A DNA stretch of 64,000 nt from a virus. Positions 46,456 to 62,975 of this stretch are shown piece by piece. The DNA is taken from positions 4,476 through 68,475 of IMG/VR virus record IMGVR_UViG_3300032053_000058; one strand, 5' to 3'. Each line of letters opens with the position of its first letter. The stretch's first letter is position 1. Position numbers and translations under genes: made by a program. The notes under the pieces are model-generated. The model saw only the letters and a list, made by a program, of their open reading frames with translations. It was not told the origin of the DNA and did no database searches.

Positions 46456-47043
46456 ATGCTTGAAACCATCCTCTTTCTCAAACCGTGGCGTTGCTTCAAG
46501 GAAGAAGTAATCGAGTTTCATCCAGGCGTCAACCTGATCGTTGGCGACCAAGGGACAGGCAAAAGTAGTTTGTTCCAAGCCATCCAAGTTCACGGAATGA
46601 AGAAACCACGCAGTTGGAATTTGTCACCAAAAGATTCGATCCCAGCAGCCATCGTTGCGAAAAGCATCCCAATCTTTGCCTTCGACTTCGAGGGCGACAA
46701 CTACCGAACCAAGTCCTGGTTTGACGCCGACATTGCCTTTCACATCGGGTCCATGCACAGAAGCCACGGGCAGATGGTCATGGCAATGATCGACGCCTGG
46801 CTGCGGATCGACAAACCTTTCCTCGTACTGGTTGACGAACCCGACATGGCCCTAAGCATCCGATCCTGCCACAAGTTGGTGCGTGCCTTCCAGCATGTCG
46901 CCGATGTCGGCGGGCAGGTGGTGGCAACAGCCCACAGTCCCATCGTTATCGCCGGATTTCCCGAGGTCTATTCCTTGGAACATCGCCGATGGATGCCAAG
47001 CCACGAGTTCATTGAAAGCCAGGGGTCAAACGGAGGGGTCTAA
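46456..47043 (+). CDS. ABC/AAA-type ATPase
   Basis: Walker A GDQGTGKS, signature-like SHGQ, Walker B LVLVDEPD.ALS, HSP. Confidence 0.88.
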   Translation: MLETILFLKPWRCFKEEVIEFHPGVNLIVGDQGTGKSSLFQAIQVHGMKKPRSWNLSPKDSIPAAIVAKSIPIFAFDFEGDNYRTKSWFDADIAFHIGSMHRSHGQMVMAMIDAWLRIDKPFLVLVDEPDMALSIRSCHKLVRAFQHVADVGGQVVATAHSPIVIAGFPEVYSLEHRRWMPSHEFIESQGSNGGV

Positions 47044-47449
47044 TCAATGGGGGATCAAATGAAGTCAAATCCAGAAAGCGCTCAAGCCGGAGCGCTTGAA
47101 CCTGGCGCGCTTCAGACCTATGACGAAGCATGGAATGACATCTTTTGCGCGTTTATACGCCTCCTTGGCGACATGGCCTTCACACTCAAAGAACCGCGAA
47201 CCATGACCCTCGACCTGCCCCGCCTCCGGTCTCTGCCGGGTTGGAACCGCTAACTATCGATCTAAGCCAAAAGCAAAGTGAAAATATACTCAAAATCTGT
47301 ACAATCATATTCAAATATGATACAGGAAAGGGCGGGTGAACCACGGCCACAATGTACCAACAAACCGCACAATACCAAACCGTTTGGTACTGTGCATCTC
47401 GCAGGCCGCAGGTTGACAATCCAATCATCTACCTTTGAGCCGCCTTTAT

Positions 47450-47608
47450 CCTGGCCGCCCTGGCCGCCCCTGCCGCCCCCAGTGCCGCCCCTGGCCGCCC
47501 CTGCCGCCCTGGCCGCCCCTGCCGCCTTTTCACCGTTGCCCCTGCCTCCACCGCCGCCCTGCCGCCCCTGCCGCCCTGGCCGTTGCCCTGGCCGTTGCCG
47601 CTGCCACC
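47450..47608 (+). repeat. C-rich degenerate tandem repeat (GCCGCCCCTG-like)
   Basis: Visible tandem 9-11 nt units. Confidence 0.9.
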
Positions 47609-47822
47609 GATGCCTCTACTGCCTGCCACTGACGCCTGACGGTTTGCCGTCTGCCAGCAAATGCGAATTGGCACACCAGAAACCAACTGGCGCGCCGATT
47701 GGGTTTTTCAATCCAAATTCCTGTAGCCAGTTTTCCTAACGGTTAAGCACATGGTTAAGGAAAGCGCCCATCAGCCGTCACGACCGACAAAAGTCAGAAA
47801 GTTATTGCAACCGATTATGCTA

Positions 47823-47879
47823 GTTGTCGGGGTCGGCGACCGGCCCGACAATCGGAGTCGGCGGCCCGACCCCGACAAC
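47823..47879. repeat. 14-bp perfect inverted repeat GTTGTCGGGGTCGG
   Basis: Arms 47823-47836 and 47866-47879. Confidence 0.9.
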
Positions 47880-47882
47880 CGG

Positions 47883-48167
47883 TTATCGTGTGTACTCTGG
47901 TCCATGTGCGCAACCCGTCCAATCAATCACTCCGCTGGCATCCGCATAGATGCACATGGCGTCGAGCGGGGCCGGAGCCGGGGCCGGGGCCGGGGCCGGA
48001 GCCGGGGCCGGGGCCGGGGCCGGGGCCGGGGCCGGGGCCGGGGCCGGGGCCGGGATGGGCGTGTAAACTGCCCAACAATAGGCGACCACGGCCGCCACAC
48101 CGACCATAGCCGGAGTCGGGCCACAAAGAATCAACAGGACCGCGAACAGAAACAAGAGATTCAACAT
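47883..48167 (-). CDS. Small membrane protein with (PA)n linker
   Basis: GGAGG RBS, start overlapping the upstream stop, hydrophobic N-terminus; linker encoded by the hexamer repeat. Confidence 0.5.
47967..48054 (+). repeat. (CGGGGC/GGGGCC)n hexamer array, about 14 units
   Basis: Directly visible; two units are CGGAGC. Confidence 0.95.
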
Positions 48168-48412
48168 ACCGCCTCCGAGGTAGAAGGTACTTCGTATGGG
48201 TGGTAGCGACCGTCACCGCCACATCGCGGGCATCGGGTCATAGCCGCATAATCCCACATCGGGACTGTAATCAATTCGTTGCCTCCACATAACCGGCAAA
48301 CATTGTTCTCACGGAAGAAGTCGTCAAGCCCGCAAGGTTGACCCAAGCAGTTAGCCGTGGCCCGCCAGACTCGTATAGCGTCACGTCCCTGCGTAAGCGG
48401 AATCAGTTTCAT
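48161..48412 (-). CDS. Chimeric small protein: HNH-AP2-type N-terminus fused to a Zn-finger segment
   Basis: [13 protein letters not shown] vs MKRIPLTQNQFAL (42893), then CRLCGG...CPRCGGDG. Confidence 0.5.
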
Positions 48413-48415
48413 AAC

Positions 48416-49048
48416 TCACCTAGTAGTGGTCGTACAGAGATCATCGACTGTGGTGGCCTTGACGACTTTATCGACATCCACGAACATATCGTTGCCGTCA
48501 GCACACCAATCCTCACCGATTCGAGCCGCAACCTTGTTGAAAATCTCATAGGCGTCATCATCGGAGACTTCGATGTCTCCAAACTTCTTGGACAAGCCGA
48601 CAAGATAGTCATGCTTCGCCCAACACTCCCAACCCTCCGAAGTCAACTCCAATTCATATTCGGACAGTTCCTCTTCGTCAATGACCGGATACTCGTTGAG
48701 GGCTTCCAGTGTATCCAGGATGGATTCCGCTGGTTCCCGGTTGTCAAGGAGCCAGCGTATCGACAGCGCCACGGCAAACGTGCCGTAGCCACCTGTAACA
48801 GCGTGTACGCCGGGGTGTTGCCCGTAGAGTTTCAAGAAGGCCCGATGATTGGCCCGTTCTACGGTCGTACCGGCATAGTCGCCGCCCGACAACAATTCGG
48901 GCACGATGTAATCGTCAGGCGTGGCGTCACCGGCCAAGTTGTGAAAATCGCCATAACTGGCAGATTCGCCAAGAGGCAAAGTTTCCTTCCGCCACGTCGA
49001 ATAGTTGACGAAGCAGCACACGGGAAGTCCCAAGATGCGGGTTAGCAT
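48416..49048 (-). CDS. Acidic hypothetical phage protein
   Basis: AGGAG RBS; DY.G..VERAN, L..YPVIDEE..SE.E. Confidence 0.65.
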   Translation of the reverse strand: MLTRILGLPVCCFVNYSTWRKETLPLGESASYGDFHNLAGDATPDDYIVPELLSGGDYAGTTVERANHRAFLKLYGQHPGVHAVTGGYGTFAVALSIRWLLDNREPAESILDTLEALNEYPVIDEEELSEYELELTSEGWECWAKHDYLVGLSKKFGDIEVSDDDAYEIFNKVAARIGEDWCADGNDMFVDVDKVVKATTVDDLCTTTTR

Positions 49049-49064
49049 GATTTCTCCTGTTGTA

Positions 49065-49619
49065 CTAGATTTCATTCGGGCCGCTCGTTTCCAGATTGTT
49101 CCACCCTACGCCGTGGTGACACCGATACCAAAGCGCCAAGTCGGCAGGGTCCGATAAATCGAAGTCAACCACGGCGCGCGGTTCCCCGTAACGGGTTTCG
49201 TCACGCGGAACCTTGCCGCCCCGGATTGCTTCTGCCAAGTGGTAGGCCGCGCTCTTGTCTCCCCGGTCGAATCGAATCCGGCCGGTTAGATGTAGGCCCC
49301 ACATGGCTGCGCCCGCAAGAGTGTCGGACTTTGCCAGCGCCTTGCGGTAGGCGCGGATGTAGCTTTCCGGTTTCGTCACGCGGCCGCGCAGTTTCGTCAT
49401 GCCGCCAGAACACCCGGCAGCGAAGCGGCAACACGAACCAATCACTTCCCATTCCGGGCCGATGCACGTTGCGCCCCAACTGCGCGCACGCCGCCCGCGC
49501 ATATCGCGGACGTTGTTATCCCCGCCTAATTCCAGGACGATGTACACATCTTCATAGTGGTCAATCACTTCTTTCGGGAAGTGAATCACCTCTATTCGGT
49601 CAACAATGTGAGTGCTCAT
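49065..49619 (-). CDS. Hypothetical protein
   Basis: 184-aa ORF coupled (TAATG) to the upstream gene. Confidence 0.6.
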   Translation of the reverse strand: MSTHIVDRIEVIHFPKEVIDHYEDVYIVLELGGDNNVRDMRGRRARSWGATCIGPEWEVIGSCCRFAAGCSGGMTKLRGRVTKPESYIRAYRKALAKSDTLAGAAMWGLHLTGRIRFDRGDKSAAYHLAEAIRGGKVPRDETRYGEPRAVVDFDLSDPADLALWYRCHHGVGWNNLETSGPNEI

Positions 49620-50068
49620 TAGGCCCTCACCACGCGGACAGATTGGAAGGGCGCGCCAGTCACGGCACCACCACCACTAGAATCACGCCGGGCGATTTCC
49701 AAGTGAATCGGAATCGTGCCCGTGCTTTTGCCGACCTGGAAACGTCGCCGCTGGCCGTAACAGTCAACGACTTCCACGCGCTTGCCCTCCAAGCCCGTAA
49801 GCTGGGGCGTCAATTCGACGGGGCAACGCCGATTGTGATGCAAACAGTAACTTACCACGCGCTGCAAGCGTGTCTTGTAGGCTTTGTAACCTCGAATGGT
49901 TCCCCGCGCTTCCGGTGGCAGATCGTCTTCTTGCAGACCTTGCCCACGAAGCCACTTCGCGTAGGCGTTAGCCAGCGCCAAAGTCACATCAAAGCCGAGA
50001 CAACTATGAAAGTTGCCGTCAGGAATAACGTAAAGCTGTTGCTTCACGTTCAAGATAACTTCACTCAT
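49619..50068 (-). CDS. Hypothetical phage protein
   Basis: AAGGA RBS; LTPQL.GLEGKRVEV.D..G..RRF.VGKSTG..P.HLE...R.S.GG. Confidence 0.7.
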   Translation of the reverse strand: MSEVILNVKQQLYVIPDGNFHSCLGFDVTLALANAYAKWLRGQGLQEDDLPPEARGTIRGYKAYKTRLQRVVSYCLHHNRRCPVELTPQLTGLEGKRVEVVDCYGQRRRFQVGKSTGTIPIHLEIARRDSSGGGAVTGAPFQSVRVVRA

Positions 50069-50082
50069 GGTATTCCTTTCAG

Positions 50083-50140
50083 TAAAAGGCTAGTGGGAAG
50101 AAACTGGACCACTATGCCAGTTTCTTCCCACGAGCCTTTA
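50083..50140 (-). terminator. Long hairpin with U tail, terminator/attenuator
   Basis: 15-bp perfect stem GTGGGAAGAAACTGG/CCAGTTTCTTCCCAC (50093-50131), extended by AAAGGCT/AGCCTTT. Confidence 0.65.
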
Positions 50141-50232
50141 TGACCCGTTTCGGCCGGGTTTAATCCGGCAGCGTCATGGCAGTCTCCTCATACTGATGGT
50201 TGCATTTGCTTGATGCAGTCCTCAATACTACA

Positions 50233-50260
50233 ATCCTAGCACGAATTTGGCAGAAGTCAA
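50233..50260 (-). promoter_or_regulatory. Repeated early-type promoter
   Basis: TTGACT-TCTGCCAAATTCGTGC-TAGGAT on the minus strand. Confidence 0.85.
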
Positions 50261-50268
50261 ATCCATTT

Positions 50269-50979
50269 CTAGTATATTTCCCAGTGACGCCGCCGCTTCC
50301 GGTGCTTCTTTGATGAAACCGGCAACCACGCCGATGATACAAAGGTTGGTTGACGCTCGTACTCATGGACGTTTGGCGAAAAGCGGATTGTGACACCATC
50401 GCTAATTCTAGCGATATTGCAGAGGGAACCCGTACAAGCCTCAAGATGCTTCCAATCACTGGAATAGTACCAGTTGCCGTACTTGTCACGACCGATGCAA
50501 ATCTCGTTATCAAACGCTTGCAGATAAAGAAAATCTCCGTCAAACCATGTAAGTCCCCACCAACCGTCAATATCCACAAATGCCTTCTGGTAGTCGCCAT
50601 TTGCCTTGTTTAACGAATCCAACAGATATTCTGAGGTCACTTCGTAGTTGGATCGTAGCGGAGGCGTTACACATCCGTTGTGACTTCCGATGATGCGGCC
50701 GAATCGAAACGGGTGGGCGTTGCGGAAAGTAATACCGCCGCTTGTCGCACGGCGCGTATGCCCGGCGATAAACCAACCCTTGCGACAAGACACAGTAATA
50801 AACTCCGCGAAGTCCTTATCACTCAGGCAGGTCAGAGGATCATTTGCGCGTTTGACACAATGCCCGGAGCCGTTGAAAAATCCAAGCGAATCCGTCCCGC
50901 GTGCCCTATTGGCAAGGGCGAGCGCGCGGATGGTTCCAGGATTTAGATTCTGGCCGATTGCTCCGAAAAGTCCACACAA
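50269..50979 (-). CDS. Class II (Ntn) glutamine amidotransferase
   Basis: N-terminal (M)CGLFG, RG.DS.G, GHTR.AT.G....NAHPF, HNG. Confidence 0.9.
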   Translation of the reverse strand: MCGLFGAIGQNLNPGTIRALALANRARGTDSLGFFNGSGHCVKRANDPLTCLSDKDFAEFITVSCRKGWFIAGHTRRATSGGITFRNAHPFRFGRIIGSHNGCVTPPLRSNYEVTSEYLLDSLNKANGDYQKAFVDIDGWWGLTWFDGDFLYLQAFDNEICIGRDKYGNWYYSSDWKHLEACTGSLCNIARISDGVTIRFSPNVHEYERQPTFVSSAWLPVSSKKHRKRRRHWEIY

Positions 50980-51012
50980 GGTAATATCCTCTATGGTTTC
51001 AAGGTATAGTTT

Positions 51013-51525
51013 CTAGGTATTCCAGTAAGCCAACACCACGCACCATAAAACGTGTTTGACTGTCCTCATGCTGCAACCAACAATTTTGGCTATTTTTGGC
51101 ACACGCCCGTATCGGACACCGTTCTTCAAGAAACGTTTATTCAGTCGCATAACTTGCAAAACTTGTTTCTTTGTTACTTTTGCCCAATGGTGCTTTTCTC
51201 CAACAACGGTTCGACCGTCTGCATCCCGATCAATTGCGTTGCGTTTATCGTCACCGGGGTAAAGGTGTTTCGGATTGACACAACCAGGATTCTTGCACGT
51301 ATGACAAGTAAGCATCCCGGTTGTTCCGTGTCCAAGAAAACAGGCAATCCGATGCGCCCTATACCAACTGGCATTGCCGAAGTGTGGGTGAAAAATACCG
51401 TAACCATCTTTATCGTGAGCGCCGCGCCACTCCCAACAATCATTGCGGCCCTGCTTTTTGACACGAACCCAAAAATTGTCAACATCCGTTTGCGCCAATC
51501 GAATAACTTTTGTCACACGCCCCAT
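51013..51525 (-). CDS. HNH endonuclease with C-terminal HTH
   Basis: FW..V.K....CWEW.GA....GYG.F, AHR, CH.C.NP.CVNP.HL..G...N..D. Confidence 0.9.
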   Translation of the reverse strand: MGRVTKVIRLAQTDVDNFWVRVKKQGRNDCWEWRGAHDKDGYGIFHPHFGNASWYRAHRIACFLGHGTTGMLTCHTCKNPGCVNPKHLYPGDDKRNAIDRDADGRTVVGEKHHWAKVTKKQVLQVMRLNKRFLKNGVRYGRVPKIAKIVGCSMRTVKHVLWCVVLAYWNT

Positions 51526-51527
51526 GC

Positions 51528-51950
51528 TTATAACACCTTCTGGTAAACAGCGACTTGATTGCCACTTTCCGAGTTGAAAAACCTTGCCGTCAATGTGTAA
51601 CCCTGCCCACGGAAAAGTTCCTCACTCGCCTCATTGCCGCCACGAATCGTACACTGTGCAATCTTTGCGCCGTGTTGCAGGGCTTTCGCTTCGGCATCCC
51701 GAAGAAGCCCCTTGGCAATCCCGTGGCGACGAACATTCGAGCCAACAGACAAATGGCTGATTTCGCACTGATACCATTGTACTTTCGTCACGGCAACAAC
51801 GCCTAAGACGAGCGAATTGTCCATGCGAACGTCCATGCGGACAAGGTAACGATCCTGATGTTCAAGGATCATTTCCGGCGTGTAGGAAATTGCAAGTTGA
51901 TTCTGCTTATTGAGCAGTGCGGCAATTTGTTCGGCAGTTCGATGCAACAT
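51528..51950 (-). CDS. GNAT acetyltransferase
   Basis: EI.HL.V....RRHGIAK.LL, N.AS..LF...GY; GGAGG RBS. Confidence 0.85.
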   Translation of the reverse strand: MLHRTAEQIAALLNKQNQLAISYTPEMILEHQDRYLVRMDVRMDNSLVLGVVAVTKVQWYQCEISHLSVGSNVRRHGIAKGLLRDAEAKALQHGAKIAQCTIRGGNEASEELFRGQGYTLTARFFNSESGNQVAVYQKVL

Positions 51951-51970
51951 TAGTCTGTCCCTCCAACTCA

Positions 51971-51998
51971 ATCATACCACGAGATTCGCAGAAGTCAA
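51971..51998 (-). promoter_or_regulatory. Repeated early-type promoter (leftward of the divergent pair)
   Basis: TTGACT-TCTGCGAATCTCGTGG-TATGAT. Confidence 0.85.
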
Positions 51999-52006
51999 AC
52001 AAGAGG

Positions 52007-52075
52007 CAAAGATTCCGGTTGTCGGGGTCCGGCCATCCACACCGCCTGACCGGACCCCGACAACTGGAATCTTTG
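52007..52075. repeat. 26-bp inverted repeat (1 mismatch) between divergent promoters
   Basis: CAAAGATTCCGGTTGTCGGGGTCCGG (52007-52032) / CCGGACCCCGACAACTGGAATCTTTG (52050-52075). Confidence 0.92.
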
Positions 52076-52083
52076 GACCCCAC

Positions 52084-52111
52084 TTGACTTCTGCAAACCA
52101 CATGGTAGTAT
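52084..52111 (+). promoter_or_regulatory. Repeated early-type promoter, leaderless (ATG 52117)
   Basis: TTGACT-16-TAGTAT-TGAAT-ATG. Confidence 0.85.
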
Positions 52112-52116
52112 TGAAT

Positions 52117-52485
52117 ATGAGCATTACAGTACCACGACTCGCTAAGGGTAAAGGTTACAAGGGGCCAGAGTTTTACGGGTGTTTCAATACCGGTATGGCC
52201 CCGTCAATCTTTCATTCACGCACAGGCAAATACGTGGTGGGGCCACAATTGCGTTGCCATGACGCTATGCGAGAAGGCTTGACCTTCTCCAAGAAGCGCG
52301 TACACGGAACGGGCAACCAACGGGTGTGGATTTTCAAGGGCCGCAAGGCCGCCGTCGCCAAGTTTATAGGATTGTGTGAAATGGCGGAAGCGGTCAACCG
52401 TGACATTGCCTCACAGCATACCGAAACCCGCCGCAAGGCCGCTACGGGTGACTTCGCCGCTATGTTAGCTTTAGGTGACTTCTAA
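52117..52485 (+). CDS. Hypothetical early protein
   Basis: Leaderless start at promoter. Confidence 0.65.
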   Translation: MSITVPRLAKGKGYKGPEFYGCFNTGMAPSIFHSRTGKYVVGPQLRCHDAMREGLTFSKKRVHGTGNQRVWIFKGRKAAVAKFIGLCEMAEAVNRDIASQHTETRRKAATGDFAAMLALGDF

Positions 52486-52498
52486 CTGAAAGGGACCA

Positions 52499-52798
52499 AT
52501 GAAAGAATTGACCGAACGATGGGCCTTTACCGACCGTGAACTGAGCAACCCGGCCGCCTGTTGCGGTTTCGATGAACTGATCGCCGACGTGCCCTTCGAG
52601 GATTTGGGCGTCCTTGTCCAGCGCAATGGCAACGTGACGAACCGATGGGTAGACGGGACGGTCGGGATTCCCGCCGATATTGCCGAATTGGCTGTTGCGT
52701 GCGAATCCCTCTATAACTCCCGAACCAATGAATTGGCCGAAGAGTGGCGCGATGTCGTCACGAATCCCGCCGGTGAGTTCCTGCGCTTCAAGGAGTGA
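52499..52798 (+). CDS. Acidic hypothetical early protein
   Basis: AAGGGA RBS. Confidence 0.6.
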   Translation: MKELTERWAFTDRELSNPAACCGFDELIADVPFEDLGVLVQRNGNVTNRWVDGTVGIPADIAELAVACESLYNSRTNELAEEWRDVVTNPAGEFLRFKE

Positions 52799-52800
52799 GC

Positions 52801-52920
52801 ATGTGCAACAAGTGCCCGATTTGTGGCAGTGAAGAGTGGTACGAAAACCGTAGTGACGGTTTCGTATGGCGGGAGTGTGATACTTGCGGACACAAGATTG
52901 TTGTCAAGAATCCAACTTGA
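52801..52920 (+). CDS. 39-aa zinc-ribbon peptide
   Basis: MCNKCPICGS...ECDTCGH; AGGAG RBS; stop lies inside the next -35. Confidence 0.6.
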   Translation: MCNKCPICGSEEWYENRSDGFVWRECDTCGHKIVVKNPT

Positions 52921-52944
52921 CTTCTCCGAAACACATAGTAGAGT
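52917..52944 (+). promoter_or_regulatory. Repeated early-type promoter, leaderless (ATG 52950)
   Basis: TTGACT-TCTCCGAAACACATAG-TAGAGT-TGAGT-ATG. Confidence 0.82.
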
Positions 52945-52949
52945 TGAGT

Positions 52950-53207
52950 ATGACACACAACGAAGAACTAGCCGCCGCCGTGGGAGCAAGTCGCTTGCGG
53001 CTACGCAAGCGTTTCATGGAAGCAAAGTCGGTTATGTCCCGTGGACTGAGCCGACTTTTCAAGGGCGCAAGACTCGACTTCGAGAACAAGCGTTTCATCG
53101 GGCAAGGGTACGCCCTGCAATGGGCACTTCGTCGCTGGCCTGACCGCCCGGAAAGTTACGAAAACCAACAAACCAACCGGGGCGACGTATCATTGGTGCA
53201 ACTATGA
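52950..53207 (+). CDS. Hypothetical early protein
   Basis: Leaderless start; ATGA-coupled downstream. Confidence 0.6.
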   Translation: MTHNEELAAAVGASRLRLRKRFMEAKSVMSRGLSRLFKGARLDFENKRFIGQGYALQWALRRWPDRPESYENQQTNRGDVSLVQL

Positions 53208-53832: not shown

Positions 53833-53839
53833 CTTTCAT

Positions 53840-53867: not shown

Positions 53868-53883
53868 TAAGTAGGAGAACACA

Positions 53884-55775: not shown

Positions 55776-55776
55776 C

Positions 55777-55804: not shown

Positions 55805-55809
55805 TGAAT

Positions 55810-56241
55810 ATGAAAACAGAAAAGGGAAAGATCGTCAAAAGTGGCATGGGCGGATTCTTGAATCCACCTACCCACCCGGAACACGATTGGAGCGTCCAGA
55901 CTGGCCTACGCCGCCGCCCTGAGAATCGCGGTAGCATGTACCTAAGTAGCGCAGTCGAGTGCGAATGGCTTGACCCCGCCACGCGGGCGGCTGCTAAGCA
56001 ACGGCTTAGCAGTTGGCAGCGCCCACCCCTCGAATCCGTGCGTGAATGGGTCTTGCAGGTACTCGGCTACTTCCGCAATTGCTACAACCTGACCGGGACC
56101 GACGATTGGAGTGTGGGTAGGTTGACCATCGCCGACGCCGACCCGATGCTTAACGCCGACAACCACGCCGGGGTGCATTTGATCCGCAAATACTACCCGG
56201 AATACACGCCCACGGCCGATGATTTCGGCGGGGCCTACTGA
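55810..56241 (+). CDS. Hypothetical early protein
   Basis: Leaderless start MKTEKGK. Confidence 0.65.
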   Translation: MKTEKGKIVKSGMGGFLNPPTHPEHDWSVQTGLRRRPENRGSMYLSSAVECEWLDPATRAAAKQRLSSWQRPPLESVREWVLQVLGYFRNCYNLTGTDDWSVGRLTIADADPMLNADNHAGVHLIRKYYPEYTPTADDFGGAY

Positions 56242-56252
56242 GGGAGCAAACC

Positions 56253-56663
56253 ATGACTTGTATTCGTTGTGCCCGCTGCAATCTGCCCGTCAAGGTTGAC
56301 GGGGAAATCGGCAAGTTACGCCTTGCCAATCCTGGCAACCACGATTCGACGGGACCAACTGAAACCGCCGTATGCCCCGGTTCGGAGCAACTAGGTATTG
56401 TGGAACACTCCATTTGGGTGCGCGTGGGGGACGCCGGGGCGTATGAATCTTTTGACTCCCTAACCGACGCCCTCGACTACCTGAATGAGTTGAATGTCGG
56501 CAAGGTAACAGGGTGGCGCGCTCTTGGATTCGACACTCCCAACTTCTGGGGACAAGACTACATCAGCATTTACCACGGCACCGCCGACGCCGACGCGCTA
56601 GGCGAGTTGACCGCCGACGAAAAGGCCACCCTCGAATCAGGGCTTATCGAGATTTTCGCTTGA
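56253..56663 (+). CDS. Hypothetical early protein with Zn-binding-like N-terminus
   Basis: GGGAG RBS; CARC...H...CPGS. Confidence 0.6.
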   Translation: MTCIRCARCNLPVKVDGEIGKLRLANPGNHDSTGPTETAVCPGSEQLGIVEHSIWVRVGDAGAYESFDSLTDALDYLNELNVGKVTGWRALGFDTPNFWGQDYISIYHGTADADALGELTADEKATLESGLIEIFA

Positions 56664-56687
56664 CTTCTCCGAAACACATGGTAGGGT
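56660..56687 (+). promoter_or_regulatory. Repeated early-type promoter, leaderless (ATG 56693)
   Basis: TTGACT-TCTCCGAAACACATGG-TAGGGT-TGAGT-ATG. Confidence 0.82.
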
Positions 56688-56692
56688 TGAGT

Positions 56693-56878
56693 ATGAACAA
56701 GCCAAGCAAACAAGAAGTCGTCGATGCCCTGGAAATCCTCTTGAAGTGGGCCACGGGTGGCGACAAGCACAGTAACCCCTATTGCTATCCAGCCGTCAAG
56801 CACGCCTTGAAAGTGCTGGCCCGCGAACGGGGTATAACCGATTGGCTTGACGTGGAACTGCGAAACCTACCAATCTAA
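56693..56878 (+). CDS. Small hypothetical early protein
   Basis: Leaderless start MNKPSK. Confidence 0.6.
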   Translation: MNKPSKQEVVDALEILLKWATGGDKHSNPYCYPAVKHALKVLARERGITDWLDVELRNLPI

Positions 56879-56889
56879 GGGAGCAAACA

Positions 56890-57231
56890 ATGGCGTACAT
56901 CTATCAGGCCGATGTGTGGTGTGATGATTGCGGTAAGGCAATCTGTGAGCAATTACAGAAGGCTGGCCTTGCCCCCGCGAATCCCGCCGACGAACACACT
57001 TTTGACAGCGACGAATATCCCAAGCGCGCGGGCGACGATGATGAATCTGATTCGCCGCAACACTGCGCCGCCGGGGAGGATTGCCTTAACGCAATCGTGT
57101 TGCCCGGTGGCAATGTAGGTTTCCTGTTTGGCGAGTTGACCGCCGTGGGCGTCGAATACGTCAAGGAGGCCATTGCCGAGGGCGGTGAGGTTGCCGACTT
57201 GTGGAAGGAACACTATGCCGACTACCTATAA
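56890..57231 (+). CDS. Acidic Cys-containing early protein
   Basis: GGGAG RBS; Y.AD.WC..C, DS..YP, ESD.PQHC, LT..GV.YV.E. Confidence 0.7.
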   Translation: MAYIYQADVWCDDCGKAICEQLQKAGLAPANPADEHTFDSDEYPKRAGDDDESDSPQHCAAGEDCLNAIVLPGGNVGFLFGELTAVGVEYVKEAIAEGGEVADLWKEHYADYL

Positions 57232-58030
57232 TCGGACAACGGACCCGGCGGCCCGCAAAGCGCTGGCCGCCGACTTGCGTGAAATCCGTCACTACTACGC
57301 CAGAAGGGCTATTGGTTTTGCAAGGCCGTCCTGGGGAACTTCTACACGGGGCTTGCGTGCAAGCCGTGGGATGGGAACATGACGACAAAATGGCTTCTAT
57401 CCAAGACTCTTTTCGGAAACGATCCGATGCCCCAACACTTTGTTGCCAGCGACGGGGCACACTACTTTGGAATCCTCCAATCAATTGAACGTGAGGATGG
57501 AAGCGGGCAATCTTTCAATGTCCGCATTGCCAACCAAAGTGGTAACACCACCTTTCACGTCAAGACTGAGGATTGAACAATGAACCATCGTTTCAAGTCG
57601 AGTTTACTCGAAGCATCGAAGAGGATTTGCCACCCACGCAAATTAACTTCCCGGACCTAGCCGAGTGGTTGGAACGCTGCCACCGGACTGTCAAGAGGGC
57701 AAGGAAGGGGGCACGTATGATACAGGCAAGCCGACAAGCAGCAACTATCGGCACAACCTTGTGCGGGCCGTCAAAGCTTGCTTCCGGTGGGCAGAAGATG
57801 AAATGAGAAACCACTTACAATGATTATCGGGGTCACTTCCACCATGCCTAAAATCAACCAAGATACTGCCCTTCAAGCCATTTATGCCCTTCTGGACATA
57901 CTTGACGGACAACAGGATCACGACCTAGAATACAATACCGGCTTGCCGTCCGCCCGATGTGCGGAAATCGCGGACCTCCGATCCCGCCTCGTGGTCGAAT
58001 ACGGAAGCGGGTGGTTGAATCGAATTTGAT

Positions 58031-58058
58031 TTGACTTCTGCCAATCTTGTGCTATGCT
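58031..58058 (+). promoter_or_regulatory. Repeated early-type promoter, leadered (ATG 58078)
   Basis: TTGACT-16-TATGCT. Confidence 0.82.
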
Positions 58059-58077
58059 TGAATAGAAAGGGAACAAC

Positions 58078-58344
58078 ATGAACAAGTTGCACAACAACCA
58101 CGAAATCGCTAAACGGCATACCAAGCCGCTGAACCAGAAGTGCGTGGAACTGGTCTACGTTCGGATCTGCCGACCCGTCGCCCGCCCCACCACCTTGCAC
58201 GCCGGAAGAGCGTCACTGTTAGTTGTCGGTAACGGGCGTATCGTTGACGACTCACGGTTCCCGGTCGATGTGTGCGAAAACCGCGACGTATGGATTCATC
58301 CGCGTAGTAAACCCCCTTATCGTCTTGCAGGGTACGCAACGTGA
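58078..58344 (+). CDS. Hypothetical early protein
   Basis: AAGGGA RBS after promoter. Confidence 0.55.
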   Translation: MNKLHNNHEIAKRHTKPLNQKCVELVYVRICRPVARPTTLHAGRASLLVVGNGRIVDDSRFPVDVCENRDVWIHPRSKPPYRLAGYAT

Positions 58345-58489
58345 CCACAAGCAAGCGAATCGTCCGAAACCTAGCAACCGCCATGACCTGGCTTGACCGT
58401 GAGGTTAAGCCGTGGGATGATTTGCCCGCCGCCGATGTTCGGAAGTTGCGGGAAGCCCTCACCGTGGTCAACAAACTCTTGGAGAAGAA

Positions 58490-58690
58490 ATGAGCGATCC
58501 GATTGTCCGCCCCGTGACCGACCAGCGTTGTGTTTTCCAAACGGGCCTTGATCTCGTTGGCCGCCCGGTGCGTTGCATACGCAAGGCTACCTTGTCGCTT
58601 GACGGCAAGCCGCTCTGTGACTACCACGCCGAACTCGCAATGGCCGCCGCTTGCGGCCGGAATGTCAAAATCGAGCGCAACCTGACTTGA
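58490..58690 (+). CDS. Small Cys/His early protein
   Basis: GGAG RBS; RC...RC..KAT....G..LC.YH; stop lies inside the next -35. Confidence 0.6.
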   Translation: MSDPIVRPVTDQRCVFQTGLDLVGRPVRCIRKATLSLDGKPLCDYHAELAMAAACGRNVKIERNLT

Positions 58691-58714
58691 CTTCTGCCGA
58701 TTCTGTGCTAAGAT
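58687..58714 (+). promoter_or_regulatory. Repeated early-type promoter, leaderless (ATG 58721)
   Basis: TTGACT-16-TAAGAT-TGTAGT-ATG. Confidence 0.85.
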
Positions 58715-58720
58715 TGTAGT

Positions 58721-59056
58721 ATGGACAGAACGGCAGAATACAATGATTACGTCCGCGATGTGTGCGGGTTTCTTCGCAAACTCGCTCCCGCCGATGCCGA
58801 CTGGATTCTTAATGATACCGTTCTTGTCGCCTCTCTTTGGCGCAAGACGGTAGCCGGTTGGAATCAAACGGCGCGCCCCGCACAAATTGCCGCCGACTGG
58901 TATGGCGACTACATCGACAAGACGCCGGTTGTCGGGGTCGGACCAATCACTCGGGTTGCCCCAGTTGTTCGCTGGAAATCGGACATTCCCGCCGACATAC
59001 TCGCAAATCGAGAAAAACGCCGCCTACTTTGGAAAGCGGCATACTTGACTTCTTGA
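58721..59056 (+). CDS. Early protein, local paralog family member 3
   Basis: AADWY..YI.KTPVV...I...ILA.R..R..LW..AYL matches 53204..53587. Confidence 0.65.
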   Translation: MDRTAEYNDYVRDVCGFLRKLAPADADWILNDTVLVASLWRKTVAGWNQTARPAQIAADWYGDYIDKTPVVGVGPITRVAPVVRWKSDIPADILANREKRRLLWKAAYLTS

Positions 59057-59072
59057 AAACACATGCTAGATT
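59045..59072 (+). promoter_or_regulatory. Repeated early-type promoter (ATG 59088)
   Basis: TTGACT-16-TAGATT. Confidence 0.75.
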
Positions 59073-59087
59073 TGAGTAGGTTCAACA

Positions 59088-59294
59088 ATGACACACGTAT
59101 TCACACTGAAAGCAACGGGGAAGGATGGAATCGTGGGTGAGTGCCCGCGAACCGTTGAATCCACCAACTGCTTTGCAACCCGCGAACTAGCGGAACGTCG
59201 AATCGAAAACTTCCGCACGGCCTTGTTGGACCATAGCATGATGGTCGAACCAATCACGATTGAAGTCATTCCACATGAGGTAGTCTACCAATGA
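59088..59294 (+). CDS. Small hypothetical early protein
   Basis: Follows promoter; ATGA-coupled downstream. Confidence 0.55.
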   Translation: MTHVFTLKATGKDGIVGECPRTVESTNCFATRELAERRIENFRTALLDHSMMVEPITIEVIPHEVVYQ

Positions 59295-59683
59295 AACAAA
59301 TCGAACTCGACAAATTCACCCTGGCCTACATCGAAGCCGCCCTATGGTCAAGCAACGATGAATCGGACGACAACGGCGGGAAACCGCTTGACGCCAATTA
59401 CAGCGCCAGCGACATTGACCCTGAAACTCTGGAAGCAATGGCCGCCGACTGCAAGCGTTTCCAAGCGGAAAACGGCACGGACATTGCCGCCGGGCCGGAC
59501 GGTCCTGACTACACCCGTTATGAACGGGCGGGTCACGACTTCTGGTTGACCCGCAATAATCACGGTTGCGGATTTTGGGATGGGGATTGGAGCGTTGACG
59601 CCGGAAAGCGTCTAACGACTGCCAGCCACGCCTACGGGGAAGTCAACCTGTATGTCCAGGATGGGCGCATCCATGCTGGATAA
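59291..59683 (+). CDS. Acidic phage protein
   Basis: F..AYIEAALWS, DC..F, AGHDFWLTRN.HG.GFWD. Confidence 0.75.
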   Translation: MKQIELDKFTLAYIEAALWSSNDESDDNGGKPLDANYSASDIDPETLEAMAADCKRFQAENGTDIAAGPDGPDYTRYERAGHDFWLTRNNHGCGFWDGDWSVDAGKRLTTASHAYGEVNLYVQDGRIHAG

Positions 59684-59908
59684 CTGCGCCCACCATGTTT
59701 GCTTCTGTTGCCGTAAATCATGGGCACCGGACGCCCCACGTTGCCGCCGGTATCGCCGACTCGCCACGCCGGATACAAGAGTTTGCCCTGATTGCGGGCA
59801 ACCATTGATCGGTCTTGGTTTAGCGTTCAAGCCGCCGAAACAAAACAACCGCCGCGCTTGGCATAAATTGGAAGTCGCCGCCCGCGCGGGCAACCGTTTC
59901 CTGAAACC

Positions 59909-60148
59909 ATGAAAACACCGCACATCATCGCCGGGCCGACCTACTTCCCCCTTCCAAGAGTTTGGGAAATCTCTGTTGCCATTCCGGGTTACAGTCCGAA
60001 ACTGGCCGCCCGCCGATACCACGCCCTGCCCGAAACCATCAACCTTGACGGGCGCACCTACATCAAAGCCGGAATGAAAGCCGACACTTTGACGGCATGG
60101 TATCGGACTCAGAAAACCGATTTGACTTCTGCCAAATCCAGGGTATGA
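59909..60148 (+). CDS. Hypothetical early protein
   Basis: ATGA-coupled; C-terminus (DLTSAKSRV) is encoded by the promoter repeat. Confidence 0.55.
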   Translation: MKTPHIIAGPTYFPLPRVWEISVAIPGYSPKLAARRYHALPETINLDGRTYIKAGMKADTLTAWYRTQKTDLTSAKSRV

Positions 60149-60149
60149 T
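60122..60149 (+). promoter_or_regulatory. Repeated early-type promoter, leaderless (ATG 60155)
   Basis: TTGACT-TCTGCCAAATCCAGGG-TATGAT-TGAGT-ATG. Confidence 0.85.
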
Positions 60150-60154
60150 TGAGT

Positions 60155-60598
60155 ATGGAAACAAACGAATATAAACGCCTTGCCGGACTCGGCTATAGTG
60201 ACGCCGAAATCCAATCCATTGCCCGCTACCACGCCTTGACGGCCGCCAAGACTGACCCGGCTGCCGGTATTGCAATCTGCAATCACGTCAATACCCTCCT
60301 GAACGACACAATCCTCACGTTCAGTCAATGGGATGGTAGTGACTTGTATGCCGCCGATCAATACGGGCGTATGTGCGTCATTCCTGGTAGTTGGTGGAAT
60401 GATGCCTACATCATCCGGGGAGTTGTGCAACAAAAGAGGCGCGGACGCCGTTACACGTTTCTATGCAACGGTCAAGCCGGGGTCAATGCCGCACAAGTGG
60501 CCTACTTCGGGGAAGATGTGCGCCTGCCCTTCTTGGCTTTTGCGGGTGTATCAGCCGCTTTCAACGCTGTCTTTGGAAAATCCCGTCAGTTGGTTTGA
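60155..60598 (+). CDS. Hypothetical early protein
   Basis: Single-gene cassette between two promoter copies. Confidence 0.62.
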   Translation: METNEYKRLAGLGYSDAEIQSIARYHALTAAKTDPAAGIAICNHVNTLLNDTILTFSQWDGSDLYAADQYGRMCVIPGSWWNDAYIIRGVVQQKRRGRRYTFLCNGQAGVNAAQVAYFGEDVRLPFLAFAGVSAAFNAVFGKSRQLV

Positions 60599-60622
60599 CT
60601 TCTGCCAAATCCGAGGTATGAT
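60595..60622 (+). promoter_or_regulatory. Repeated early-type promoter, leadered (AAGGAG, ATG 60641)
   Basis: TTGACT-TCTGCCAAATCCGAGG-TATGAT. Confidence 0.85.
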
Positions 60623-60640
60623 TAAGTAAAGGAGCAAAGC

Positions 60641-60937
60641 ATGTATTACTACAAGTTGACTGCCACCGAACTTGAGGCCCTTGTGCCCGCCGACGCTGCC
60701 TGTATCCTACGGGTTGCCGCTGAGCGGAAGCCGGGCAAGTTTGCCCGCGAAGTGGTGCGCGTACCCTTGAACAAAGCTGGCACCATTTGGGTCCAGAACA
60801 CGCATTACTACGGCGGCGAAAACTTTGGGGAACCGTACCATTTCCCCGCTGAAATCTGCCACGTCACGACCAACTCAGCTTTCATCCGATTCGTGAACAA
60901 GCGAAACCTGCACCTGCGAATCCCGATCAGTTACTAG
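60641..60937 (+). CDS. Hypothetical early protein
   Basis: Strong RBS. Confidence 0.62.
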   Translation: MYYYKLTATELEALVPADAACILRVAAERKPGKFAREVVRVPLNKAGTIWVQNTHYYGGENFGEPYHFPAEICHVTTNSAFIRFVNKRNLHLRIPISY

Positions 60938-60947
60938 GAACAAACAC

Positions 60948-61361
60948 ATGGATATTCACGTTGTCGCCCTCGTCGAAACCAGTCACTACCATATCGACTC
61001 TGCCGACGTGCCTTACATCGCGCAGATTCGTGGCGTGTACCTTTTTGACAAAGAGCAGCGCACGCATTGCTGCGAACTCACCCCCAGTTACTATCTGATT
61101 CACTTGTACGATCAGGTGATTCTTTCGGAAGCCGGGGACGCGCTTGACGACGACCAGAAGGACCGACTCTATCAGGCTTATGAGTACAATGGCGGTGAGA
61201 ACAACTACGTACATTGCCACGAGATTGACGCCATTGTCGAACGGGCCGATCAGGGTGAACACTACGTCTATGGCGATTCGGAAGTCAAGGAGGATGATGT
61301 CGAATATGACGATCAGATCGAAGCCGTCCGCGAACATCTTTGCGGAAACTGCCCGCTGTAG
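60948..61361 (+). CDS. Very acidic early protein
   Basis: AGGA RBS; VYLFD....THCCELTPSY.L; D/E-rich. Confidence 0.68.
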   Translation: MDIHVVALVETSHYHIDSADVPYIAQIRGVYLFDKEQRTHCCELTPSYYLIHLYDQVILSEAGDALDDDQKDRLYQAYEYNGGENNYVHCHEIDAIVERADQGEHYVYGDSEVKEDDVEYDDQIEAVREHLCGNCPL

Positions 61362-61369
61362 ACCGGGCC

Positions 61370-61411
61370 GCCACCCCGCCCGAATCCACCACGGGCGGGG
61401 TGGTCACTTTT
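61370..61411 (+). terminator. Rho-independent terminator
   Basis: GCCACCCCGCCCG / CGGGCGGGGTGGT followed by CACTTTT. Confidence 0.65.
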
Positions 61412-61888
61412 GGAGATACCAGTGAGTAATTTCCTGAAATTCTGTAGTTGCCAACAGTGCCGCGCCTACAAGCATTGCCCGCGAAGCAAGTTTCACACTC
61501 GACTCGCTATCCGGGCCGCCCGCCACGCCGCCAAGTTGGCTCTTAAACAAGGCCGCGAGACTACGCCTGCCAAGTCTGCCGGTTACACTGACTAACGGGG
61601 TCAAACCCTGGGGTCTACCACCGGTCAAATCCGACCGGGGTCAATTCGGAAGCGCTTGGCGGTCGGCGCTCAGAGGCGCTTGGCGCTTGGCGCGCTCTGC
61701 ACACCGGGACACTTCCCATCCCTTTCCGCCGAATGGACTATCTCACCCCTCGCAAGTCGGTGCTGTTGTGCCTGCATCCCTCACTCGAAGTATCTCACCC
61801 GCCCGTGGCAGGGTAAACTATGTGAAGTGACCACATAATTATGTGTCGCCGGGGTGAAACTATACGAAGTCAAGGGCGTCGGCAGGGC

Positions 61889-61951
61889 GTCGGCACCAAG
61901 TTGAGAGTAGTCGGCACCAAGTTGAGAGTAATCGGCACCAAGTTGAGAGTG
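61889..61951 (+). repeat. 21-bp tandem repeat x3 (iteron-like)
   Basis: (G/A)TCGGCACCAAGTTGAGAGT(A/G) at 61889, 61910 and 61931. Confidence 0.92.
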
Positions 61952-61954
61952 GTC

Positions 61955-62084
61955 GCCGCCCTGGCCGCCGCCAGCCGCCTCTGGCCGCCTCTGGCCGCCG
62001 CCAGCCGCCTCTGGCCGCCGCCAGCCGCCTCTGGCCGCTCGGCCACTGTTGGCCCTAGCCCTGGCCCTGGCCCTGGCCCTGGCC
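61955..62084 (+). repeat. C-rich repeats (GCCGCCTCTG / GCCGCCA, then GGCCCT x5-6)
   Basis: Directly visible. Confidence 0.9.
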
Positions 62085-62380
62085 ATGTTCACTACTTTGG
62101 CCTGATTCACTACGTAGTGAACAGTGAACAACGCAACCGCGTGTAAACAGTGTAAACGCAGCAATGCGAACTCGCCTCAATGCGAACTTGCATCGGGCAG
62201 GTTGGCGACAAAGCCGCCGAGGAAACCACCAGCCAAACCACTGGACTCGGCGCGCCGGAAACGGCGCGCCGGTTGGCGCGCCAATCCAAATTCCTGTAGC
62301 CAATTTTCCTACGGTTATTATGTGACGGTTAGAGTACACGGTTAGAAATGATGCGCCCCGCCCGGTGCCACAGGAAAAAT

Positions 62381-62425
62381 CGTTACAACCGTTACAATCG
62401 TTACAACCGTTACAATCGTTACAAC
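62381..62425 (+). repeat. 9-bp tandem repeat x5 CGTTACAA(C/T)
   Basis: The last base alternates C/T, giving an 18-bp superperiod. Confidence 0.92.
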
Positions 62426-62553
62426 CGTCATAGATGTTCCAAACCGGTCGTGCCGATTATCGGGGTCGGACCAGGCCCAACCGCAAAACCGTCATAGACG
62501 TTCGGAATCCTACAACTGGAATCCCCTCTTTGGGAGGGGAAGATACTTCTAAT

Positions 62554-62975
62554 GGGGCCGGGCATCGGGCAGGGCCGGGCATCGGGCGGGGCCGCCGGGC
62601 GGGGCGGGGCGGGGCCGCCGGGCAGGGCAGGGCCGGGCAGGGCCGCCGGGCGGGGCGGGGCGGGGCGGGGCCGCCGGGCAGGGCAGGGCCGGGCAGGGCC
62701 GGGCAGGGCCGCCGGGCAGGGCAGGGCCGGGCAGGGCCGCCGGGCAGGGCAGGGCCGGGCAGGGCCGCCGGGCAGGGCAGGGCCGGGCAGGGCCGCCGGG
62801 CAGGGCCGCCGGGCAGGGCCGCCGGGCAGGGCCGCCGGGCAGGGCCGCCGGGCAGGGCCGCCGGGCATCGGGCCGCCGGGCGGGGCCGCCGGGCGGGGCG
62901 GGCAGGGCCGGGCATCGGGCCGCCGGGCGGGGCCGCCGGGCGGGGCCGCCGGGCAGGGCCGCCGGGCAGGGCCGC
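62554..62975 (+). repeat. G-rich array of GGGCA/GGGCC/GGGCG/GCC units, about 420 bp
   Basis: Nearly T-free run of GGG tracts separated by 1-5 nt. Confidence 0.95.

Follow-up and report, generated by a model that had tools for sequence, protein, structure and literature searches.

Two homologous composite elements, A (positions 47022–48054) and B (61597–62975), were compared with each other and with related sequences in a 64-kb stretch of viral DNA (IMG/VR record IMGVR_UViG_3300032053_000058; the whole stretch is hereafter called the window). The best explanation of the comparisons presented below is that A and B are paralogous copies of a conserved, mostly non-coding element, which would jointly delimit an early gene module driven by host RNA polymerase (RNAP). 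The observation is solid and conserved, and several readings of the function are considered below. The window comprises bases 4476–68475, i.e., the last 64 kb, of one viral contig (68,475 bp in total) that represents an uncultured lineage. No similar DNA was found in a collection of cultured phages, and the DNA polymerase of the genome carrying the window (G0) gave only partial matches, with identity of 29% or less, so there is no studied relative that could serve as a guide.

According to a rough gene call, plus-strand genes extend to position 47043 or 47253, and are followed by a 4-kb block of minus-strand genes (47883–51971), a 9-kb block of small plus-strand genes (52499–61595), and further minus-strand genes (~62457–63810). 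Both elements are located where plus-strand genes meet minus-strand genes, as an earlier note on this DNA had stated. The promoters of the small-gene block belong to a σ70-like family (TTGACTTCTGCC...TATGAT), which appears as a repeat family of 12 copies; 23 promoter-like sites were observed against 9.4 expected. Promoters of the same type accompany the last minus-strand genes (63237 and 63841). Because of this promoter family, the label “early region” is a reasonable inference, not a measurement. At least 16 σ70-like promoters, with an extended consensus TTGACTTCTGCCAAA-N-TATGATTGAGTA, were noted at 50233–63841 and at 32512 and 38426; most are positioned 7–35 nt ahead of a small gene, and one precedes the gene of an extracytoplasmic function (ECF) sigma factor (38460–39017).

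By reading and by a motif scan, every member of the ordered motif series that had been described for A and B was found in place. The series starts with GGGGTCAAAC-N3-GGGGTCTA at 47022 and 61597 (GGGGTCAAAC occurs nowhere else in the 68.5-kb genome), and continues with GTCAAATCC (47064 and 61624, with one more copy at 50256), AAGCGCT (47076 and 61650), TGGCGCGCT (47103 and 61688), AATGCGAA (47660 in A, 62163 and 62179 in B), GGCGCGCC (47689 in A, 62249, 62263, and 62275 in B, together four of its seven genome copies), and TCGGGGTCGG (47827 and 62460). Two copies of CTGTAGCC are present in the 68.5 kb. An identical 21-mer shared by the two elements has exactly two genome copies, spaced by 14,573 bp, even when three mismatches are allowed, and none of 100 shuffled sequences matched it. 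The surrounding core is identical at 36 of 38 positions, and the flanks are ~60–75% identical. Alignment of A with B revealed collinear homologues (60.7% identity over 448 columns, E 2e-11; C-rich arrays, E 1e-15). With the arrays excluded, the E values were 1e-13 and 1e-10. The parts of element A and the open reading frame (ORF) that overlaps it are:

47022–47115, plus strand: left boundary, with four GGGGTCAAA-like iterons ~13 nt apart (47022, 47035, 47050, 47063), then GCGCTY repeats at 47076–47115; aligned with B and with element D1 of contig L001 (see below; nhmmer E 1.8e-25).
47149–47160, no strand: near-palindrome GCGTTTATACGC, found by reading, with variants seen by eye in B and in elements C1, C2, D1, E1, and F1 of relatives.
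47250–47329, no strand: AT-rich segment, GC content 0.29, the most AT-rich 80 nt in the whole window; holds the block GTGAAAATATAC (47278; B counterpart at 61854) and the palindrome ATCATATTCAAATATGAT.
47366–47396, no strand: hairpin, −14.2 kcal/mol, z −4.9, with a terminator-like flag on the minus strand.
47450–47608, plus strand: C-rich array (C 0.57, G 0.25), Tandem Repeats Finder (TRF) periods 9, 49, and 12, bottom-strand G-quadruplex motif.
47681–47760, plus strand: core, with the GGCGCGCC palindrome at 47689, the 21-mer at 47709–47729, TTTTCCTA-ACGGTTA at 47731–47745, and a second copy, ATGGTTAAGG; nhmmer E 1.3e-20.
47821–47882, no strand: long palindrome GTTGTCGGGGTCGG...CCGACCCCGACAAC, which immediately adjoins the end of the 94-aa ORF, past its stop codon; the palindrome hairpin (minus strand, 47815–47890) has −43.3 kcal/mol, z −5.4.
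47883–48167, minus strand: 94-aa ORF, whose product has two hydrophobic segments, a (PA)16 stretch, and a tail of 28 aa.
47967–48054, plus strand: G-rich array, TRF period 6, 14.7 copies as assembled, spanned by no unitig.

The corresponding parts of element B, together with an overlapping ORF and a promoter to the right of the element, are:

61597–61698, plus strand: left boundary, with four iterons (61597, 61610, 61624, 61637), then GCGCTT repeats; nhmmer E 1.4e-22.
61818–61955, plus strand: segment with CTATGTGAAGTG, palindrome CACATAATTATGTG, block GTGAAACTATAC, two copies of GGGCGTCGGCA, and 3.2 copies of a 21-nt repeat.
61955–62084, plus strand: C-rich arrays, TRF periods 10/20/30, then 5.8 copies of TGGCCC (period 6), bottom-strand G-quadruplex motif.
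62141–62159: two copies of GTGTAAAC, the B variant of the GCGTTTATACGC near-palindrome.
62248–62345, plus strand: core, with three GGCGCGCC copies, the 21-mer at 62282–62302, TTTTCCTACGGTTA, and three ACGGTTA copies (62311, 62325, 62338); nhmmer E 4.5e-19. The first two GGCGCGCC copies form a perfect hairpin with a GAAA loop (plus strand, 62240–62285; −27.9 kcal/mol, z −2.8).
62378–62490, plus strand: 5.3 copies of the 9-nt repeat CGTTACAAC, then a degenerate copy of the GTCGGGGTCGG palindrome.
62457–63068, minus strand: 203-aa ORF with a hydrophobic N-terminus and weak gene signals; its status as a gene is uncertain.
62554–62975, plus strand: G-rich array (G 0.58), periods 13 and 28, top-strand G-quadruplex motif; TRF calls it at 62583–62975, and by reading it starts from ~62554.
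63210–63237, minus strand: early-type promoter TTGACT-16-TATACT, which fires towards the G-rich array.

The last plus-strand gene before A (207 aa) ends in a stop codon that overlaps the first motif of this element, and the left boundary of B begins 2 nt past the stop codon of a 61-aa gene.

The possibility that the arrays or the duplicated core are assembly artefacts was evaluated using independent assemblies (Logan unitigs of four sediment metagenome runs). Fourteen runs contained at least half of the words sampled from this phage, and no RNA run was listed among the runs containing it. The 46500–47961 segment, which covers most of A, was reproduced with no differences in two of the four runs (X1 and X7). 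In B, positions 62009–62407 were reproduced in two runs (X7 and X8), and positions 62399–62582 in three (X1, X7, and X8). Since the unitigs reproduce unique parts of both A and B, the core duplication is real. All unitigs stop at the G arrays and none bridges either of them, so the copy numbers and lengths of these arrays come from the contig assembly only. Apparent A-to-B joints (e.g., 47476 to 61952) were not counted: their sides are 20–25 nt long, lie within the C-rich arrays, and are 90% alike, and such joints often represent repeats or other organisms. Likewise, no weight was given to uncovered stretches, to bins with raised depth at the arrays, or to small insertions and deletions within the B array.

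Four further lineages with such elements were found by protein-guided and motif-guided searches: G1, which contains contig L001; G2, which contains L002; G4, which contains L033 (103 kb, rated 100% complete); and G5, which contains L032. G2 has near-identical counterparts in G3 and in L010, a contig from a metagenome. Proteins of the relatives show ~30–85% identity to their counterparts in the window, and the lineages differ in the order of their genes, which is shuffled. The elements of the relatives are located as follows:

L001, 7364–8340: D1.
L002, 15121 to ~16660: C1.
G2, 66560–65300, reverse strand: C2.
L033, 5612–7237: E1.
L032, 7732–8954: F1.
L032, ~190–290: F0, an eighth copy, cut by the contig start.

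Weaker copies, referred to as type III, are found upstream of a promoter at ~69.2–70.2 kb in G1, ~11.0–11.9 kb in G5, and ~93.2–93.4 kb in G4.

All seven full elements of the five genomes (A, B, C1, C2, D1, E1, and F1) lie between the 3′ ends of converging plus- and minus-strand operons. Of the five genomes, three have the plus-strand early operon flanked by a same-orientation pair, namely, G0 (A and B), G2 (C2 and C1, ~9 kb apart), and G5 (F0 and F1, ~8 kb apart); the sequences of G1 and G4 stop too close to this region for bracketing to be judged. Synteny pairs A with C2 and F0, and B with C1, D1, E1, and F1. The closest copies are those within one genome (A and B, E 1e-13; C1 and C2, E 2.5e-19, with a lineage-specific left-boundary motif shared by the latter two), while comparisons of A or B with D1, E1, and F1 gave E values of 3e-4 or weaker. 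Copies within a genome would have come to resemble each other through concerted evolution or because they co-evolve with a binding protein specific to the lineage, and either argues for function. The same motif order, observed in four other lineages with proteins 30–85% identical, supports the proposal that we are dealing with a functional element family rather than with a drifted satellite.

Profiles built from the left block of A, B, and D1 and from five cores matched only these lineages, namely, four of 80 loci with a conserved early protein and one of 80 loci obtained with a looser DNA pattern. The pattern CACGGTTA-N5-30-CACGGTTA occurs in at least 118 stretches; among 80 loci examined, the sole relative was L167, which is G4 itself. 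The exact 21-mer was not found in viral_contigs, and a BLAST search with the A core gave no match in G1 and G2; the relatives came from the motif and profile searches. A pattern describing the core matched five stretches of viral_contigs (two from the L002 lineage and three without shared context), one of metagenome_contigs (L002 lineage), and 11 of genome_contigs, none of the latter in an element context. Three Zixiibacteriota contigs from metagenome assemblies (L013, L020, and L021) carry the core pattern with a preceding ATTC inside what looks by eye like a tyrosine-recombinase coding region (...PNRRTFTGYRNY...), and were treated as chance matches.

The conserved parts are short iterons and palindromes, and not the GC-rich arrays. 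Their order starts with GGGGTCAA-type iterons (three to four copies, ~13 nt apart) directly after the last plus-strand gene. These are followed by GCGCTTGG repeats, a C-rich stretch, AACTTGACGA and GTCGGCA repeats, and ATGCGAA, and then by the near-palindrome GCGTTTAYACGC, GGCGCGCC, and two to three direct copies of (TTTTC-N3-4-)ACGGTTA. The ACGGTTA heptamer is invariant in all five aligned cores. The left-block profile matches twice in G0 and also in G1, G4, and G5, near-palindromes of the GCGTTTATACGC type were matched by a regular expression in G4 and G5, and counterparts of the 61818–61955 segment of B (TGTGAAGTCGGCAGC...) were recognised by reading in D1 and F1. The iterons of D1 begin ~20 nt past a stop codon, and the E1 array ends ~30 nt from the stop codon of the last minus-strand gene.

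The arrays are not conserved: their units differ between A and B, D1 has no array, and unit, length, and presence vary between relatives. The 77-nt array of C1 has 4.3 copies in L002 (16327–16656) and 3.3 copies in the near-identical L010 (4144–4396), so there is natural variation in how many copies it has. The right array of E1 (~680 nt, units of 106, 142, and 248 nt) amplifies GTCGGCAACCGGCCGG, which is single-copy at the same position in D1. In G0, the left arrays have C/G ratios of 2.25 and 1.68 and the right arrays ratios of 0.51 and 0.58; the corresponding values for relatives are 0.95–1.17 (left) and 0.83–0.90 (right). The strong C-then-G strand asymmetry is specific to this phage. Of the claim that order and polarity are both kept, motif order holds throughout, and polarity is strong in A and B and weak in relatives, where the arrays are not the conserved part. 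A polymerase entering from either side would make C-rich RNA in this phage. Canonical top-strand G-quadruplex motifs occur in the 64-kb window only in the two G arrays, and the C arrays carry such motifs on the bottom strand.

The variability of the arrays bears on whether they have any function at the DNA level. They could be slippage-prone low-complexity sequence, in part coding for the tails of small minus-strand membrane proteins and for the rest 3′ untranslated filler around a small regulatory core. In favour of this, units differ between A and B, arrays are absent from D1, and the 77-nt array varies between 4.3 and 3.3 copies. Coding signals point the same way in part. The G array of A encodes the (PA)16 stretch of the 94-aa ORF, and its reading frame is kept because the period is 6; GGAGG is present 5 nt ahead of the ATG, which overlaps the stop codon of the upstream gene. 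Thus, this array is probably protein-coding and the 94-aa ORF is probably a real gene. Small hydrophobic minus-strand ORFs also adjoin the core in C2 and F0. However, the G array of B has periods (13 and 28) that are not multiples of 3, with all three minus-strand frames open, and the E1 and C1 arrays are outside ORFs. No homologues of the 94-, 203-, and 68-aa ORFs were found in relatives, and none of the array ORFs has a detectable homologue; the 94-aa ORF and the positionally equivalent 96-aa ORF of L032 gave a BLASTP E value of 4, which is not significant. The C arrays show no convincing gene signals by eye. The mirrored polarity common to A and B and the restriction of top-strand G-quadruplex motifs to these arrays also speak against arrays without function, which we consider improbable. 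On this evidence, the arrays appear to be primarily DNA-level repeats, at least one of which is tolerated inside a gene.

As to what the elements do, we tentatively favour, as possible though short of probable, a role as paired protein-bound boundary or terminator elements that would confine early transcription. Each element would consist of three parts: a left boundary after the last plus-strand gene, made of GGGGTCAA iterons and GCGCTT repeats; a central part with the GGCGCGCC palindrome and two to three direct ACGGTTA repeats; and a right boundary after the last minus-strand gene, with a GTCGGGGTCGG / GTCGGCRRC palindrome or arrays thereof. Putative phage-encoded DNA-binding proteins would occupy the iterons and palindromes and create a nucleoprotein block, with which stable GC hairpins may cooperate. 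In this phage, the block could be reinforced by the strand-asymmetric, quadruplex-prone minisatellites, the incoming transcripts being C-rich. Convergent transcription would then be halted from both sides, and early transcripts would not run antisense into neighbouring modules. The arrays could be fast-evolving amplifications of boundary sequence, with selection, if any, acting on their composition rather than on their sequence.

A bidirectional transcription barrier was among the roles suggested in the earlier note; this putative role is the one that best fits the position of the elements. Boundary motifs begin at stop codons in several cases (the iterons of A, B, and D1, and the palindrome of A, which abuts the stop codon of the 94-aa ORF). 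The co-variation of paralogues within a genome is expected if one lineage-specific protein reads both copies. The GC-rich hairpins at the inner ends of the elements and the composition of the G0 arrays also speak for this role, as does the finding that there is no terminator-like site at the ends of the operons entering A or B. Neither of the two most stable hairpins of A and B (−43.3 and −27.9 kcal/mol) was flagged by a consensus scan. The sequences that follow the hairpins, UAGCAUAA in A and GUUGGCGC in B, contain no U run. A terminator scan placed minus-strand sites at 47396–47366, 47791–47767, and 63148–63136, inside the elements and not at the ends of the entering operons; overall, 28 sites were called against 23.1 expected, i.e., without excess. 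A hairpin seen by eye after the last plus-strand gene at E1 was not significant (z −0.6). A σ54 promoter, an ECF-sigma promoter, and a tRNA-like site were considered by eye for the core, and none fitted. A search of Rfam families matched only a tRNA elsewhere in the window, and under permissive settings A and B yielded a single hairpin hit, attributable to chance (23 bits; the gathering score is 90).

Several observations weigh against a boundary or terminator role. RNA made in the incoming direction across the G0 arrays would have clearly more C (0.52–0.65) than G, but its G content (0.25–0.34) is high for Rho loading, which calls for at least 70–80 nt of C-rich, G-poor RNA, and Rho could not load at the G array of A because this array is inside a probably translated ORF. 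An element of 1–1.4 kb with at least eight motif types would far exceed what termination needs. Weak C/G asymmetry in relatives and a stable hairpin that precedes F1 imply that the interior of the element may not normally be transcribed from the left. The strong early-type promoter at 63237–63210 fires into the G array of B from only ~240 nt, which is odd for a pure terminator, and in G1 and G5 a type III copy is located upstream of a promoter and not at a convergent junction. No protein binding the elements was recognised.

The main rival, which we regard as unlikely, is an iteron-type replication origin, copy-control locus, or partition site. Here, the repeats would bind an initiator or ParB-like protein, the arrays would be amplified sites, and convergent transcription would be kept out to preserve the complex. 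Short direct repeats at ~13-nt spacing (GGGGTCAA four times, ACGGTTA two to three times) suit this idea, as do the location of the most AT-rich 80 nt of the window beside the iterons of A and the amplification in the E1 right array of a motif that is single-copy in D1. However, the AT-rich segment has no equivalent in B, where the lowest GC content is 0.41, and by reading none in relatives; family searches of flanking proteins revealed no initiator gene beside any copy, and two to three copies per genome would be unusual for a primary origin. The C-then-G polarity fits the sign change of skew expected at a bidirectional origin, but cumulative GC skew, a check named in the earlier note, merely follows gene orientation and says nothing on replication. 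As for partition, the genome encodes a ParB-family protein with a helix-turn-helix (HTH) domain (1825–2742; matches to ParB_N, HTH_ParB, and the PHROG family of ParB-like partition proteins). Nevertheless, no palindrome of 14 nt or longer recurs in the genome, hence a parS-like site is absent: the 8-mer GGCGCGCC is the only one that recurs (seven copies), and no perfect palindrome with 7-nt arms shares a half-site with another.

The motif GGTTGTCGGGGTCGG, present in the long palindrome of A, has seven copies, all in the 47.8–64 kb part of the window (47823, 47866, 52015, 52053, 58925, 62455, and 63915). It forms an inverted pair in A and another between divergent early promoters (52015 and 52053), and single copies precede two other promoters; in appearance, the motif resembles an operator. 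This arrangement bears on a reading in which A and B would be a pair of operator clusters that control the early module over a long range, with a single regulator binding both and looping or spreading to switch the module off or on. The recurrence of the GTTGTCGGGGTC palindrome of A as the 52015/52053 inverted pair, with single copies near promoters at 58925 and 63915, would be in line with it. So would the bracketing of the module by same-orientation copies in three of five genomes, the co-variation of paralogues within a genome, which resembles that of operators with immunity specificity, and the type III copy upstream of a promoter. The lineage may also be temperate, since G1 encodes a serine recombinase. 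Yet A and B are located at operon ends, 4–10 kb from the promoters to be controlled, no copy overlaps a promoter, and no repressor was recognised. Overall, this reading has a small chance of being correct.

The serine recombinase is encoded at L025:5735–6529 on the minus strand (65.7–66.5 kb of G1) and has a resolvase N-terminal domain (E 2e-21). Its gene is ~3 kb away from the type III element, beside which there are many CGGTAAC repeats. The presence of this enzyme, the identical direct 21-mer amid flanks that are otherwise ~60–70% identical, and the shuffled gene order around the elements might suggest that A and B are direct-orientation sites at which site-specific recombination excises, amplifies, or exchanges the 14.6-kb module. 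Such a role appears very improbable: the pair in G2 has no long identical core, the cores differ beyond ACGGTTA, and a scan of 49 distinct G0 proteins revealed no recombinase (124 ORFs were called on the contig, which is probably partial).

A function at genome ends, i.e., a packaging or cleavage signal, or an injection stop bounding the first-entering segment, is likewise highly doubtful. The early region is within ~1–17 kb of a contig end in all five contigs, but these ends coincide with repeat-rich DNA and may be assembly breaks, and G1 and G4 are labelled as trimmed proviruses. Besides, A and B are diverged paralogues and not terminal repeats, and no terminal repeat was found in the G0 contig or in G4. 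Taken together, none of the packaging, injection-stop, recombinational excision, and origin or terminus roles proposed earlier gained direct support.

A more far-reaching idea, which we regard as a long shot, is that A and B are partner sites of one nucleoprotein machine that pair physically. The early, or host-takeover, module would then be a separate domain (an insulated loop, or an excised or over-replicated segment), with the mirrored quadruplex-prone arrays serving as polar barriers to RNA polymerases and replication forks. If this were true, the machine would be a phage counterpart of paired chromatin insulators or of amplification-control elements.

Known systems resemble the elements in part. 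Terminator zones between convergent operons, either bidirectional intrinsic ones or Rho-dependent ones with C-rich rut RNA, are alike in position, GC hairpins, and, in this phage, C-rich incoming transcripts. However, the elements described here are 1–1.4 kb long, contain many conserved motifs, lack U-tracts after hairpins, and have 25–34% G in the C-rich RNA; their copies are also paired, in the same orientation, and co-evolving within a genome. Stoperators of cluster A mycobacteriophages offer a parallel as short asymmetric protein-binding sites near the ends of genes, which halt elongation and vary along with the phage's own repressor. Stoperators are single sites of ~13 bp, dispersed 20–30 times over the genome, whereas the iterons studied here are clustered in two to three composite elements, and both GGGGTCAAAC and CTGTAGCC occur only twice.

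Iteron origins and copy-control arrays, such as the lambda origin and P1 oriR/incA, share short direct-repeat clusters, an AT-rich segment (in A), and amplified arrays. In contrast, the elements have ~13-nt repeat spacing, no adjacent initiator gene, an AT-rich part that is not conserved, and several copies per genome. The herpesvirus a sequence and the T5 injection-stop region, the latter said to be repeat-rich, are alike in having GC-rich reiterations around a unique core or a repeat-rich non-coding zone bounding an early segment, but nothing places A or B at a genome terminus or terminal repeat, and the two are diverged paralogues. At lambda OL/OR, paralogous site clusters of phage-specific sequence flank a regulatory module. 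Long-range silencing by KorB at OB sites of plasmid RK2 (PMC11790492) offers a similar parallel, and a ParB-family protein is encoded here. Unlike in those two systems, A and B do not overlap promoters, there is no recurring palindrome of 14 nt or longer, and no regulator was recognised.

Thus, the elements miss at least one defining feature of intrinsic terminators (the U tract), stoperators (dispersal), parS/OB sites (a recurring palindrome), and iteron origins (an adjacent initiator). The description that suits them best is that of intergenic regions of a boundary or regulatory kind, which are long, multi-motif, paired, and co-evolving, with hypervariable minisatellite arms. Among the first papers listed in topic searches of the literature, none described such elements, which is weak evidence that there is nothing in print.

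Other features of the window were also recorded. Family searches indicated that the long plus-strand block encodes a DNA polymerase, DNA and RNA ligases, two DNA methylases, the ParB-like protein, ClpP, an ECF-type sigma factor, and a second sigma-like protein. No informative family was found in searches with the flanking and early proteins (61, 68, 83, 94, 121, 130, 136, 137, 149, 184, 203, 219, and 221 aa). Relatives of the 130-aa early protein (59291–59683, function unassigned) are encoded by 304 viral contigs, with YIEAALW and GHDFWLTRNGHGCGFWD conserved. A tRNA-Trp gene (55702–55776) is located within the early module and a tRNA-Glu gene (30392–30465) within the long plus-strand block; a further tRNA-like sequence was seen by eye at 3860–3935 of the genome, outside the window. 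Arrays of 18/54-nt repeats on the plus strand at 1–109 and 376–738 (genome 4380–5215) encode collagen-like Gly-X-Y sequence (GPPGDP..., PSGPDG...), and are probably tail-fibre-like genes; unitigs of one run apparently also break at these repeats, near 706–738. An uncalled plus-strand ORF rich in Cys/His motifs (32014–32414), located in a 700-nt gap, resembles by eye an HNH-type homing endonuclease. The contig end (63850–64000) is repeat-rich non-coding DNA upstream of the minus-strand promoter at 63841, where synteny with G5 and G1 would predict a type III copy; the contig is probably a fragment broken at this terminal repeat-rich DNA.

Phage genomes are compact, yet ~2.4 kb per genome is spent here on conserved, mostly non-coding edges of the early module. 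This points to an unrecognised layer of cis-regulation, which may serve module insulation, control of timing, replication, or partition. The ACGGTTA repeats with GGCGCGCC, the GGGGTCAA iterons, the GCGCTTGG repeats, GCGTTTAYACGC, and the GTCGGGGTCGG palindrome provide probes for binding proteins, and the paired, co-evolving copies amount to a natural test of specificity. With the mirrored, quadruplex-prone minisatellites, one could ask in a natural setting whether bacterial polymerases are stopped by strand-asymmetric repeats.

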